64,000 bases of DNA from Escherichia coli (GCF_044647545.1 NZ_CP172818.1), one strand, 5' to 3'; counted from the first letter of the stretch, positions 1-6,000 are shown. Program-made: the numbers.

Positions 1-3000
1 CCATTATTTTCTTTACCTTTAGGAAAACCTCCTGGAAACGGCCCCAAAAAAACGTCCTTTTTCCGGTAAAAAAATCCCCTCTTATTTGATAGTAAATACA
101 GCCAATGCACAAAATTCAGGCGCTTTCAGCTCTCTTTTATGATTTTATTGTTCATCCGCAGTAAGATTCACCTCATTGCCTTTTTTCTGTTTTCATAGTA
201 AACGCACCAACTCATTGAGATTAATGAGACTGAGTTAGAAGTGTAGCCAGTACTTGTAATTAATAATATGATTGGGTAAATATAATGTAATGCTAGACGC
301 CACACTAAACTGACCAGCGCCGCCATCATATTATTCTACTCAACCGAAACAAAGATACCTCCCCTCGCGCGAAAAATGTAATATTTTCTTTATGATTACT
401 ATTCCGCTCCGTTATCAAGATAAAGAAAGGAATGGCGCTGAAAAAATGCCGTCAAGGTTGGAGAGAACGAGAGCACCAGATATAGACAACCGCCATCGAA
501 AAAAGCAAATCCCACCCCGACACGCAAACAACTACAAACAGATGAACAGCAATACGAAACTATACCGATGATGTCATGTTTCGCCACGATTGAGGCGATG
601 GTTTCCCACGAAAAACCCTTTTTCCCCATCATACAATACTCCTGTGGGAAAAGCGCGCTGTTCCCCGCATCGAAATCAAAGACTCCGGGAACCACATCGA
701 AATACAATTGCGCCCAGCATCACCTGAATCAGGTCATACGCTTCGAGATACTTAACGCCAAACACCAGCGCAATAAGCGGCTTGCCGACGATCAACACCG
801 CGAGCGCCACCAGAATACCGATTCCGCCCGCCAGTAAACCTGACTTCACGCCTAACAACCACGGTCTGGTGGTGCGCGGATCTAAACGCATCACCTCTGG
901 GTAAAAACTTTTGCCCAGTAAACCCGCTGGCGTTCCGGCGGCGTCGAAGAATGTCATGGCGATTTTAAATAACCCGGCGGCAGCGGGTCCTAACACGATC
1001 CCCACCAGCACTGTGCTGCACGAGTTACGCGCCGACCAGATGGAGTGGGCAATGTTGGTTGACCAGACAAAACTCCACGCGCCTTTAATGTGTCGGGCAG
1101 ACTCAAACAGATTCAATTTGAAGGCGTTATGGATATTTCTGCGGCGTAATTCGCGCGCGGCAAACCACCAGTACATGGTGCCGCCAACCAGATTCGACAC
1201 GTACCAGGCAATAACAAAACCCGCAAAACCAAAGTCAAAATACCAGGCTACGACGCTCCCCGCTGCGCGCAGAAAAGGTTTCGTCGCTTGCTGTACAGCA
1301 ATTAGATCGAAGCGATCTACCGCACGCAGAATGCCGGTCGGCGTGGAGGAAGCCATTGAAGGAATGAGCGTGCAATACAGCGCTGCCAGCCAAAAGCTTT
1401 GGTCATCCAGACCTAATGAATGGGAAAGAAAAGGGAGTAAGGCAATGCCGCCGACAATCGCCACCGCGCCGCTGACGATATCCAGCGAGAAGGAAAATGA
1501 GACGACATTGCGAAATTGCTGCGGATTATTGTTGGTCAAGGCTGGCGTTCCGTACTGCACCACCAACTGCCATGTCTGAAACTTAATAAAATCGCTGATC
1601 GACTTGGCGTACGATTGCACAATCACCAGTACGCCAAACATGGCGGGCGTCATCCCTTTACCGGCACACGAGAGCGCCAACAGACCCAGTAAAGCGCTCA
1701 CGACATTACTGGAGCCTAACCAGGCGCTATTGCGAATAATGGTGCGAAACGCGCCATCTGCAAACCAATGTTTGATGTTAAAACCCGCCAATTCAGCCTG
1801 ACCTTATCGTTGATAGTAAAAAGTATCCCGCCAGCCTTAAGTTAAACTTCGGCGGTCAGAAACGATGGCAACCAGAGAAACCGCCTTCTGTGCCTGTTCC
1901 AGCACTTCGCTGTAAGGCGCTCTGGAATCAATCTCAAGAATTTTTGTGCCGTTATAGCCAATCTTCGACATGACGCCGATTTTGTCCTGCAATTCGGCAT
2001 AGTCATGGTCAGGCTTGCGGGAAATGGCAGTATCAATATCAATCCCCAAACGAATGATTAATTCAGGACGGTATTGCGCCATTTGTTGGTATAAACGCCG
2101 TTCGCGCTGCGCCAGAAACATGCTGATTTTCCCGGTCGCACGTTCGACGCCGATCCCCGGTCCGTCATAATAAAAGCCCGAAATTTCAGCCTGCGGGAAG
2201 CGATCGCTGACCACCAGAACGCCACTTTGCGCCAGTCGCTGAACCTTGCGTAGATTCGCCATTCTTCGCAGCGAGAAGCAGTACATAATCACCGCCGCCC
2301 ATAGCGCTGGAGATTTGGTTTTCATGCTTTGGGTTTTCGATGATTTGGCCGCCAGTCGCCGTTCGAGCCAGACGCCAACCAACGGCAATCGTTTGATTTT
2401 GTCGCCGTCTTCGCCCGAGAGCAGCCCCAGATAGCGGCGCTCGGTTTGCCAGTGTTGTTGCAGCGATTTCACCAGATCGGTGGTCAGTGTGGATTTACCG
2501 GTACCATCACACCCGACCACCGCAATCAGCCCCGGAATGTAGTTGGGCTGCGGCGCGGTTGTACTATTAACAGTTTGTGTTTGTAGTGCGTCCATTCGTT
2601 AAATCATCCCCTATCCATTTTGGTGATCAGGAAAGCGCAGCGTGAATTGCGCGTAGTGACGCTTGCAGAATTTCATCGGCTGGTTGCCGACCATCCAGTT
2701 CAAGGATCTTTGCGCCATTGAATGTCAGTTGCGGCGTAACGGCGATTTTTTCCTGTAACGCTGCCAGTTGGTGGTCAGGTTTACGCGCAAACGCGGTTTG
2801 TTCATCAATGCCAAGACGAATCAACAATACGGGCAAATAAGACGCCATCCATTGGTACAGCTTCAGCTCGCGCTGCCTTAACATTTTTATCCAACCGTTA
2901 CCGCCCGTGGTTTTTGCCAATTGCGGGCCATCAAAGCGAAAACCCGGCACTTCAACCTGCGGGTAGCGGTCGGTGATGAGCAGGTAGCCTTGCTGGCTTT

Positions 3001-6000
3001 TACACAACATTTTGCGAAACTTGTACGCCCGCCAGCAGGAAAGCAGATAGATAACCAGCGCAGTCATATTGCCAGGCGGTGTGGAGGGCTTTTCGTGCAC
3101 ATGTGCCGCTTTACTTCGCAGATAACGCCCAAAAGGTGCGCCAATAACAGGGAGCTGTGAAATCCATTCGCCAATTCGCCCGGACGATTGCCCGAGATAA
3201 ATGTGTTCTGTTGGCATTGTTGCTGCCAGTTCATTTACCAGGCTTGCCGTGAGGGTCGATTTACCTGAACCATCACATCCTACAATGGCAATAACACGCA
3301 CTGGCGTGGAATTAATTATTGACATATTACGTTGATTCACGAAAAACCCGGCAGCAAATAATGTATTGAATATTACGTGGTCCGTGCTCAGAATATCCGT
3401 TCAACCTTATTGTGACAATGGTTAATTGTGACATTGACCTGAATTACGCTTTCATCAAAAACATATTAACCAAATAAATATTTTGGATGGATATTTAAAT
3501 TTAAGGATATATTCATGCAGTCAATAATACCTCCATTAATTGCCGTTATTGGTAGCGATGGTTCAGGCAAGTCAACGGTGTGTGAACATCTTATTACCGT
3601 TGTCGAAAAATATGGTGCTGCCGAAAGAGTTCATTTAGGAAAACAGGCCGGAAATGTCGGTCGTGCAGTGACAAAATTACCGTTGATGGGAAAATCCTTA
3701 CATAAAACAATTGAACGAAATCAGGTGAAAACAGCAAAAAAATTGCCTGGCCCTGTTCCGGCGCTGGTAATTACAGCGTTTGTCGCCCGTCGCTTACTGC
3801 GCTTTCGTCATATGCTTGCCTGTCGTCGTCGCGGGTTAATTGTTCTAACCGACCGTTATCCTCAGGACCAAATTCCTGGTGCTTACGATGGTACGGTGTT
3901 CCCACCTAACGTTGAAGGTGGTCGTTTTGTCTCATGGCTGGCAAGCCAGGAACGTAAAGCGTTTCACTGGATGGCGAGCCATAAGCCCGATCTGGTCATC
4001 AAACTCAATGTCGATCTGGACGTGGCCTGCGCGCGTAAGCCTGACCACAAAAGAGAATCGCTGGAAAGGAAGATAGCCATAACGCCACAGTTAACCTTTG
4101 GTGGTGCACAACTGGTTGATATCGATGCTAATCAGCCACTGGAAAAGGTGCTGGTTGATGCAGAAAAAGCGATTACGGATTTTATGACCGCGCGTGGTTA
4201 TCACTAGTCAAAAATGGAAATGCCCGATCGCCAGGACCGGGCATTTTCAGGAAGGTTAAATCAACTGCAATGCTATCCAGTACAACCCACCAGAAAGAAA
4301 AATCGCCGCCGGTAAAGTAAACACCCACGCCATCAGGATGCTGGTTACCGTTTTACGCTGTAACCCACCGCCGTCCACCACCATCGTCCCTGCTACTGCA
4401 GACGAGAGTACGTGTGTTGTGGAGACGGGCATCCCAATATAACTGGCAAGGCCGATAGACACTGCCGCCGTCATTTGTGCCGCCATGCCTTGCGCATACG
4501 TCATGCCGCGCTTACCAATCTTCTCACCGATGGTCATCGCTACACGACGCCAGCCAATCATGGTGCCGATGCCGAGCGCCAGTGCTACCGCCATGATGAT
4601 CCACACCGGTGCGTACTCAATGGTGCTTAACATATCGCTGCGCAGTTTTTTCAGCAGGTTCTGGTCTTCTTTACTGACGCCTGGCAGTTTCGCCAGCTTC
4701 GCGGAGGTATCAGAGATGCACAGCATAATGCGGCGCAGCTGGCTGCGCTGACTCACGCTTAACGGCTCGTAACTTTCCATATTGCCTGGCAGCATCGTTT
4801 TAACGCGCGCAATCGCATCAAAGGTATTTGCCGGATGACAGTGAAACTCTGTTACTTGCGTGCCATCAGTCGATGTCGCAGGCAATGGAGGTTCCATCGT
4901 AATCAACTTCTGCGGCAGTTCAGGATGCTGTTGCAGGTAGTGTTCGAAGTTGGTGACGGCATCGCGGGTACGGGTAATTTCATAGCCGGACGCGTTCATA
5001 TTGACGACGAAACCAGCAGGGGCAATCCCCACCAGTACCAGCATCACCAGGCCGATCCCTTTCTGCCCGTCGTTCGCGCCGTGCGAAAACGCCACGCCCG
5101 CAGCGGAAACAATCAGCGCAATACGCGTCCAGAATGGCGGCTTACGTTTGCCTTTTTTCTTTTTGCGATCTTCCGGAATGCGGTGAATACGGTCACGCTT
5201 TTTCGTCCCGCTCCAGAAACGGCGCAGCAGGAAAATCAGACCACCCGCAATGACCAGGCCGACGATAGGGGAAACAATCAGCGAGGAGAAAATTTTGGTC
5301 ACTTCACGCAGGTTTAACGCATCCATCACCGATGAGCCGGTTAACAGCGCGTTGGTTAAACCGATGCCGATAATCGCACCAATCAAGGTGTGCGAACTGG
5401 AGGCCGGTAAACCAAAGAACCACGTTCCCAGGTTCCAGATAATCGCCGCCAGCAGCATAGAAAAGACCATCGCCAGGCCGTGAGTTGACCCCATATTCAA
5501 CAACAAATCGGTTGGCAACATATGGACAATGGCATAGGCAACGCTAAGTCCGCCTAGCAATACGCCAAAAAAATTAAAAAATGCCGCCATCACCACAGCA
5601 AGTTGTGGTTGCATGGCACGAGTATAAATAACGGTTGCCACCGCATTCGCCGTGTCATGAAAACCATTGATTGCTTCGTAGAACAACACAAATGCCAGAG
5701 CAAGTAATAACAAAAGCCCTGTGTATATATCAAGGCCAACAAATAAATTTAGCATATATTAGATTACGCCATTTTGAATTTACGAACGGACGCATTATCA
5801 GTGACTTTAACGGCATGGGCAAAGTGAAATATCATTTTTTAACGATAAAAAGCGTGTTATTTCTTGTGTATCAGACAATAAGCATTCATTCAAAACCTTT
5901 AGAAATAATCAAAACACATGTATTCTGCTGGTTAATATATTCACATATAAAATGAATAAATATTGGAATATATAAATATTGAATGTTTTGATTAATCCCC

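Follow-up and report, generated by a model that had tools for sequence, protein, structure and literature searches.

In Caulobacter crescentus, the CC_1152-CC_1168 locus for the ceramide diphosphoglycerate CPG2, an anionic outer-membrane lipid, combines the ceramide core genes for Spt, AcpR, AasR, CerR and bCerS with a Polysacc_synt-type flippase, CC_1166 (IPR002797), and with LptF2/LptG2 (PMC11324152, S1 Text; 10.64898/2026.04.12.717747). LptF2/LptG2 can be deleted only when the anionic sphingolipid is not synthesized, and both proteins bind the housekeeping LptB (10.64898/2026.04.12.717747). The head-group enzymes of this locus are CpgB, a DAGK-like kinase for ceramide that carries a GGDG motif, the Tam41-like CpgC, the CDP-alcohol transferase-like CpgA, the nucleotidyltransferases CpgD and CC_1153, and CC_1158. 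All five ceramide genes are clustered in Escherichia coli BL21, where the ligase is AasR, a dedicated acyl-acyl carrier protein (ACP) synthetase, the ACP is AcpR, Spt prefers acyl-AcpR, and AasR, AcpR and Spt together produce 3-oxo-sphinganine; yghO is listed as the N-acyltransferase gene (PMC9386255). A "sphingolipid operon of E. coli UTI89" has been drawn in a 2026 preprint (10.64898/2026.04.12.717747). Here we analyze yghQ, yghR, yghS and yghT, four genes at positions 676-4207 of a 64,000-nucleotide stretch of E. coli DNA (NZ_CP172818.1, assembly GCF_044647545.1; hereafter the window), in relation to these loci and to the heteromeric archaeal polyphosphate kinase PPK3 of Sulfolobus acidocaldarius (Saci_2019/Saci_2020), in which thymidylate kinase (TMK)-like paralogs share an operon with a CHAD protein and one of them is a regulatory subunit without the DRX Arg (PMC12995831). 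CHAD domains bind inorganic polyphosphate specifically (10.1101/567040).

The E. coli island shares with the Caulobacter locus the same ceramide core, a Polysacc_synt-type flippase, and LptF2/LptG2. The Caulobacter head-group enzymes, in contrast, are absent from the E. coli, Serratia and Carnimonas islands, which carry YghR, YghS, YghT and a CHAD-like protein instead. Homology of YghR/S/T to CpgA, CpgB or CpgC was considered and dropped because the Caulobacter proteins belong to the other families named above. We consider it very likely that yghQRST is a functional part of a sphingolipid island, and we lean, with moderate confidence, towards its being the head-group and export end of that proteobacterial island. 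That the sphingolipid or its head group is phosphorylated by YghR, YghS and YghT is likewise somewhat favored.

Three thymidylate kinase-fold paralogs

The four open reading frames (ORFs) named in the preliminary description were all found where it had placed them. yghS (2627-3340, 237 codons) heads a minus-strand operon that continues with yghR (1837-2595, 252 codons) and yghQ (676-1791, 371 codons), and yghT (3515-4207, 230 codons) is divergent on the plus strand, as had been described. The proposed paralogy of the three P-loop proteins is borne out, well beyond chance, by an alignment that runs end to end, with YghS and YghT 42% and 34% identical to YghR and 57 columns invariant; even the DNA flanking the Walker A codons of the three genes is still 71–76% identical. 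The motifs GxDGxGKST and DR(F/Y)PQ occur in all three proteins, as claimed, and so does RKPDH, whereas the longer ARKPDH and the C-terminal QLTFxGA, which had been ascribed to all three, are confined to YghS and YghT: in YghR the residue preceding RKPDH is S, and the equivalent of QLTFxGA is KIGYNGT. The net charge of the three proteins is +10 to +12.

YghR, YghS and YghT, rather than falling into unrelated families, all belong to the thymidylate kinase superfamily and are predicted to be P-loop phosphotransferases. The whole-chain fold is that of TMK, with P-loop, DRX motif and LID, and the likeness to Tmk (TIGR00041, PF02223) extends to the GxDGxGK(S/T)T form of the P-loop, the LID Arg, and the position of the Arg that binds the dTMP phosphate. 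In the profile alignment the invariant R104 (YghS numbering is used throughout) coincides with the Arg that ends the TMK "FSANR" motif, and R125 with that of DRX. The "FSANR" Arg holds the dTMP phosphate in human and Plasmodium TMK, and the Phe of the motif stacks on thymine. The three proteins differ from Tmk in an extra or altered acceptor-side region, in the invariant PQ after DR, D137, E158 and KPDH, and in genomic context. ABC proteins matched only over the P-loop (about 25 residues), and neither the ABC fold nor its signature was found. PADLOC defence models likewise gave only P-loop-limited matches, at E 2e-4 or worse, and none for YghQ; a role as a defence system was dropped on this ground.

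The similarity to nucleotide kinases that the preliminary description had suggested checking thus holds for the fold and fails at the level of the curated family: TIGR00041 scores are 31.2 bits for YghR, 25.1 for YghS and 24.9 for YghT, against a cut-off of 83.25, and Thymidylate_kin (PF02223) E-values are 0.025 or worse. These weak matches, the fold, and the names given by RefSeq would fit true dTMP or nucleotide kinases that serve redundantly in salvage and are simply located beside the island. RefSeq/PGAP calls YghS and YghT "dTMP kinase" (L001 9989-11569, L002 9905-11484) despite a score of 25 bits versus 83, and the YghR entries vary between "ATP-binding protein", "hypothetical protein" and "nucleoside/nucleotide kinase family protein". 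The distance to the cut-off argues against salvage enzymes, as does the residue at the thymine-stacking Phe position (PfTMPK "LLFSANRW"), which is aliphatic here (L100 in YghS), so that the FxxxR pattern is not found. Also against them are a stretch of about 50 residues between the P-loop helix and the DRX strand that has no TMK counterpart (Foldseek TMq ~0.55) and the conservation of three orthogroups beside lipid genes described below. We regard redundant nucleotide kinases as extremely improbable, and the name "dTMP kinase" for YghS and YghT looks like an over-annotation.

A scan with one genome per species yielded 321 relatives, and the best 80 loci were retained for the counts that follow. 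Three paralog genes are present in 62 of the 80 loci, two in 13 and four in 5. By the listed coordinates, every locus has a second paralog just downstream of S, that gene being R in 75, and in other species, too, the yghT orthologue is usually transcribed divergently from a position directly upstream of S. Clustering divides the 231 sequences into three groups (75 R, 82 S and 74 T), with which the R/S/T labels agree in 230 cases; identity is ~0.6 inside the orthogroups versus 0.36–0.45 between them. Because the three orthogroups are separate and individually conserved, the triplication is old. Kept in all three groups are G21, D23, G24, G26, K27, R104, D124, R125, P127 and Q128, and also D137, E158, R186, K187, D189 and H190; the DRX Arg R125 is invariant in each of the R, S and T sequences. 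This pattern suggests that selection maintains the same chemistry in all three copies, which presumably use different acceptors or form one complex. Loci with the triad were found in Enterobacterales, Carnimonas, Xanthomonadales, several beta-proteobacteria, Novosphingobium, Sphingobium, Acetobacter and delta-proteobacterial metagenome-assembled genomes.

The domain itself is more widely distributed. A profile search over 1.84 billion representatives gave 2153 clusters. Among them are proteins with the single domain, some of which have membrane helices at the N terminus, tandem S-R fusions, and very many relatives of about 500 residues with an N-terminal NTP_transf_5-like domain. One 978-residue protein (P0222) carries a Polysacc_synt_3 flippase, NTP_transf_5 and the kinase domain in a single chain, and in locus L007 (5721-9482) a gene for an NTP_transf_5-kinase fusion, whose start codon overlaps the 3' end of the flippase gene, lies within a Wzx/Wzy polysaccharide cluster. 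In polysaccharide clusters that additionally encode sulfotransferase and ATP sulfurylase, NTP_transf_5-kinase genes directly follow those for Wzx-type flippases. The kinase domain is generally tied to MOP-flippase-dependent envelope pathways, and the R/S/T triad is its sphingolipid-specific branch.

The frequent NTP_transf_5-kinase fusions, including the example in the Wzx/Wzy cluster, fit a pathway of phosphorylation followed by activation. The three kinases might accordingly phosphorylate a soluble head-group precursor (a sugar, glycerate or alcohol) that is later transferred to ceramide, in the manner of LicA/LicC or of a Caulobacter CpgD CDP-phosphoglycerate-like route, and TMK-superfamily enzymes do normally use soluble substrates. 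However, no nucleotidyltransferase or head-group transferase could be recognised in the islands of E. coli, Serratia or Carnimonas, a membrane anchor is present in some single-domain relatives, and the neighbors of the triad (DgkA paralogs, an LpxO-like hydroxylase) act on lipids. A soluble precursor is therefore an unlikely substrate in our judgment, and direct action on the sphingolipid or its head group remains the favored reading.

Linkage to the ceramide island

The window copy is from E. coli but not K-12: it is 99.6% identical to strain FDAARGOS_497, the closest complete genome, over bases 648-4300, and 97.4% identical to MG1655. In FDAARGOS_497 the minus-strand operon reads yghS, yghR, yghQ (449 codons), a gene for a 274-residue hypothetical protein (the CHAD-like protein), a YtfJ-family gene, and paralogs of LptF and LptG. 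Adjoining it on the opposite strand are genes for a fatty acyl-AMP ligase (aasR), an NAD-dependent epimerase/dehydratase (cerR), an ACP (acpR) and spt, followed by yghO (bCerS) and glcC. The spt gene of this strain is split by IS1 (L003 20706-22655), and the otherwise intact island of FDAARGOS_497 is for that reason probably non-functional. The island protein of the YtfJ_HI0045 family (L003 24867-25427) begins with a signal-peptide-like sequence; YtfJ-like proteins are encoded in most of the E. coli, Serratia and Carnimonas islands, and the gene, conserved in most islands of Enterobacterales, occupies the position of Caulobacter LptC2.

Linkage of the triad to spt, acpR, aasR, cerR and bCerS was found in intact E. 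coli, Serratia and Carnimonas; it is not visible in the window, which begins within the island. Serratia marcescens has a complete island at a different chromosomal site, and Carnimonas carries the triad with the ceramide genes, again at a different site and without yghQ. Among 5426 complete E. coli genomes, 4502 contain yghQRST and 4096 (about three quarters) the aasR-cerR-acpR-spt block. In K-12 MG1655, IS5 lies between yghO and a truncated yghQ (L002 5704-9069), and about 9.5 kb are missing, comprising aasR, cerR, acpR, spt, lptG2, lptF2 and the YtfJ-like and CHAD-like genes. The co-occurrence analysis proposed in the preliminary description, run here on the 10-kb flanks of the triad, placed at least one island gene there in 72 of the 80 loci and Spt in 54; the triad accompanies the sphingolipid genes in gamma-, beta-, alpha- and deltaproteobacteria.

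Counts within the same distance of the triad are 20 loci for a DgkA paralog, 19 for an LpxO-like (PF05118) hydroxylase and 4 for DAGK_cat; genes of the first two kinds often stand immediately 3' of yghR. The LpxO-like Asp/Arg hydroxylase is ~70% identical across gamma- and beta-proteobacteria, and a DgkA paralog holds the same slot elsewhere. The loci with a hydroxylase or DgkA gene after yghR are L047, L052-L054, L060 and L068 (at ~11450-12280) and L020, L025-L027, L032, L043, L046 and L049-L051 (at ~11500-12200). One metagenomic locus has the order kinase-kinase-flippase-CHAD-like gene (a homologue of the 274-residue protein), adjoining a DAGK_cat gene.

The genes had been put forward as an uncharacterised system. 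In this respect the proposal stands, as a literature search on yghQ, yghR, yghS, yghT and yghO found no function for YghR/S/T, and the published functional data that were found concern neighboring genes only. They are not, however, a free-standing four-gene unit: they form the distal part of the ceramide island.

The assignment of YghQ as a flippase-like membrane protein agrees with its Pfam matches to Polysacc_synt (PF01943, E 6.5e-9) and Polysacc_synt_3 (PF13440, E 1.1e-7), which identify it as a MOP/Wzx-type flippase; it also matches the NCBIfam MOP flippase model, with scores well below the curated cut-offs. Unlike the Wzx/MOP flippases of O-antigen and exopolysaccharide synthesis, YghQ is encoded in a lipid locus, no glycosyltransferase or Wzy is present in the island, and the protein is truncated both here and in K-12. 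The tight linkage of the kinase domain to MOP flippases, which extends to the P0222 fusion and the overlapping genes in L007, could mean that YghR/S/T are not kinases but NTPase subunits or regulators that energize or gate YghQ or LptF2G2, and the sphingolipid loci do lack an LptB paralog. The Caulobacter LptF2G2 proteins, however, use the housekeeping LptB, the fold is TMK and not ABC, and Carnimonas has the triad without yghQ. In addition, the strict conservation on the acceptor side (R104, DRxPQ, D137, E158) favors phosphotransfer. An NTPase or gating role is in our view very improbable, and kinase activity is preferred.

The 274-residue neighbor (intact at L001 6980-7804) gave nothing significant in Pfam, NCBIfam or PDB sequence searches. 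Its predicted fold aligns with 195–214 residues of three CHAD structures (6qv5, 3e0s and 6rn5) and consists of two four-helix bundles, as in solved CHAD structures. Its invariant residues make up two repeats, each pairing a basic helix of His, Arg and Lys (RxxxKHxR; HxxRK) with a Gly...Asp helix (GxxQD; NGxMGxxHD), and at the tblastn threshold used it is conserved alongside the kinases in 55 loci. It thus resembles the CHAD proteins of Ricinus (6qv5) and Chlorobium (3e0s) and PptA (6rn5) in predicted fold, and differs from CHAD proteins, YgiF included, in lacking a significant Pfam or hhalign match and in being encoded in a lipid island rather than with ppk, ppx or CYTH.

Like the PPK3 subunits, YghR/S/T are TMK-superfamily paralogs encoded side by side, and a protein with a CHAD-like predicted fold is encoded in their operon; the common logic of TMK-fold paralogs plus a CHAD-type binder working on a phosphate-terminated acceptor would, by analogy, be striking. 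The three proteins and the CHAD-like protein could then be a PPK3-type kinase that makes or consumes free polyphosphate, with an indirect link to the lipid through energy or phosphate supply or through regulation. PPK3, however, has two subunits, one of them dead, encoded beside ppx and sixA, whereas the DRX Arg missing from the PPK3 regulatory subunit is present in YghR, YghS and YghT alike, and their genes stand beside lipid genes, in an operon with the flippase and LptF2G2. No ppx, sixA or pst was present among the neighbors in the gene lists read, although the 80-locus scan did not query these genes. In a profile comparison the family matches classical TMKs at E ~1e-7, and its match to 2plr, a homologue of cPPK3, is confined to the P-loop and has E 1.5e-3. 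E. coli, moreover, already has PPK1. Free polyphosphate metabolism is accordingly a quite improbable function, and we retain a role in the sphingolipid pathway.

State and regulation of the window copy

Two features of the window escaped the preliminary description: the C-terminal truncation of yghQ and the decayed CHAD-like partner gene just downstream, at 1-440. Intact E. coli YghQ has 449 residues, and the 371-residue window copy is ended at 676 by a premature stop. The two proteins are identical at 370 of 384 aligned positions, matching to about residue 363 and then diverging up to the stop; the last two to three hydrophobic segments are missing, which leaves the set of membrane helices incomplete. 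The decayed 3' end of yghQ, corresponding to codons ~364-449 of the intact flippase, was located at 402-705 on the minus strand by tblastn and nucleotide identity, and includes a second, out-of-frame fragment at 402-521 that matches residues 409-448 at 58% identity (tblastn). The remnant of the CHAD-like gene (1-440, minus strand) was identified by tblastn and nucleotide comparison; window positions 6-389 are 31% identical to the intact protein and contain in-frame stops (tblastn). Because yghQ is without its last two to three membrane segments and the CHAD-like gene is decayed, the module in the window cannot be complete.

The affected segment, bases 1 to ~705, covers the 3' end of yghQ and most of the following CHAD-like gene. 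It shows a flat 65–75% nucleotide identity to the normal allele with many indels, and identity jumps from ~70% to 100% at ~705. Megablast found no close match to the segment in any of the complete E. coli genomes. Its substitutions are near random (~41 transitions versus ~72 transversions, a ratio of ~0.57), a ratio that looks more like noise than natural divergence; the segment may be either an old pseudogenised stretch or a sequence or assembly artefact. The point of truncation of the K-12 yghQ gene, at a window equivalent of ~722, lies within about 20 bases of the start of decay. The opposite end of the window is perfectly normal with respect to E. coli; it contains the C-terminal part of ygiF, which encodes a CYTH-CHAD inorganic triphosphatase, at ~63,100-64,000 on the minus strand next to glnE, so that a genuine CHAD gene and the decayed CHAD-like gene lie about 63 kb apart.

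The divergent spacer between yghS and yghT (3341-3514) is AT-rich, with a GC fraction of 0.316 against 0.51 for the window, and is presumed to hold divergent promoters controlled by H-NS and SlyA. One sigma-70-like site was found in it (3418-3390, minus strand), although the promoter and terminator scan overall did not exceed shuffled expectation. yghS is up 3.1-fold upon SlyA overexpression, and the unexpanded regulon or binding-overlap codes "K, O" given for it we take to be H-NS binding datasets (PMC5797941). We read the SlyA-dependent induction as relief of H-NS silencing. An FlhDC peak obtained by SELEX (systematic evolution of ligands by exponential enrichment) was also mapped to this spacer (PMC9962212). 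Where yghT and pitB converge, a GC-rich hairpin at 4218-4246 (minus strand), with a 12-bp stem that includes 6 GC pairs and a T-rich tail after it, is terminator-like as a pattern match. No Rfam RNA family was found within 1-4400. The literature on these genes otherwise offers K-12 screens and a 2-fold effect of yghQ deletion on the minimum inhibitory concentration of chlorhexidine.

A candidate head-group and export module

In the pathway that we favor, Spt, AcpR, AasR, CerR and YghO would make ceramide, the first steps of which have been demonstrated (PMC9386255). An island DgkA or DAGK paralog, or else the housekeeping DgkA, would yield ceramide-1-phosphate. YghS, YghR and YghT, as basic cytoplasmic proteins, would then use ATP to modify ceramide or phosphorylated forms of it on the cytoplasmic side of the inner membrane, extending or multiplying phosphates in sequence or as a complex to give a strongly anionic head group. 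Retention of the TMK acceptor-phosphate Arg (R104) suggests that the acceptor probably already ends in a phosphate. The CHAD-like protein may bind or hold the phosphate-rich head group, and by analogy with Caulobacter, YghQ would flip the finished lipid and LptF2G2 with the housekeeping LptB would extract it towards the outer membrane.

The nature of the product is a more speculative matter. A phosphoanhydride chain, that is, an oligo- or polyphosphate, is conceivable but rather doubtful. The full proposal, that a hitherto unknown lipid class, ceramide oligo- or polyphosphate, is built stepwise or processively on a ceramide-1-phosphate primer by YghS, YghR and YghT in most E. coli and many proteobacteria, held by the CHAD-like protein, flipped by YghQ and delivered to the outer membrane by LptF2G2-LptB, is a shade more doubtful still. 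If true, it would amount to a version of the PPK3 system anchored in a lipid, and the product would be an anionic surface lipid resembling lipid A.

Several observations weigh against a sphingolipid head-group pathway or against parts of it. The kinase domain is not restricted to sphingolipid loci, given the many NTP_transf_5-kinase fusions in Wzx/Wzy clusters, and known TMK-superfamily enzymes, to our knowledge, use soluble nucleotides or polyphosphate and not lipids. The suggestion of a phosphate-ended acceptor derives from one aligned Arg and its role in the human and Plasmodium enzymes. The E. coli island is without a dedicated ceramide kinase gene, and 26 of the 80 loci have no Spt within 10 kb, most of these still carrying LptF2G2, the flippase or the CHAD-like gene. 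The CHAD-like designation comes from the predicted fold: Pfam CHAD (PF05235) matches 1 of 28 members of the 274-residue family, at E 0.089, and hhalign against the CHAD domain of E. coli YgiF returned a probability of 0.1%, that is, no match. In the literature found, no lipid product of the E. coli island and no experiment on YghR/S/T is reported; a search on serine palmitoyltransferase together with E. coli or UTI89 sphingolipids found nothing, and a silkworm virulence screen of K-12 knockouts gave nothing notable.

The ceramide half of the island and the genes themselves were already known. In the literature found, yghQRST and the CHAD-like gene are not described as a distinct head-group and export module, nor was a description found of the conserved division into three orthogroups or of the resemblance to PPK3. 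The full ceramide island is present in about three quarters of complete E. coli genomes, and we found no report of the sphingolipid that E. coli makes or of its purpose. The present reading turns four "y-genes" into a testable module, in which three active-looking kinases are joined by a CHAD-like binder, a flippase and LptF2G2 and which stands in place of the Caulobacter Cpg head-group pathway, and it extends the recent finding that phosphate-chain chemistry has recruited thymidylate kinase paralogs paired with CHAD proteins. Should an anionic sphingolipid reach the outer membrane in pathogenic E. coli and in Serratia, it would bear on the permeability barrier, on sensitivity to polymyxin and other cationic agents, and on host recognition.

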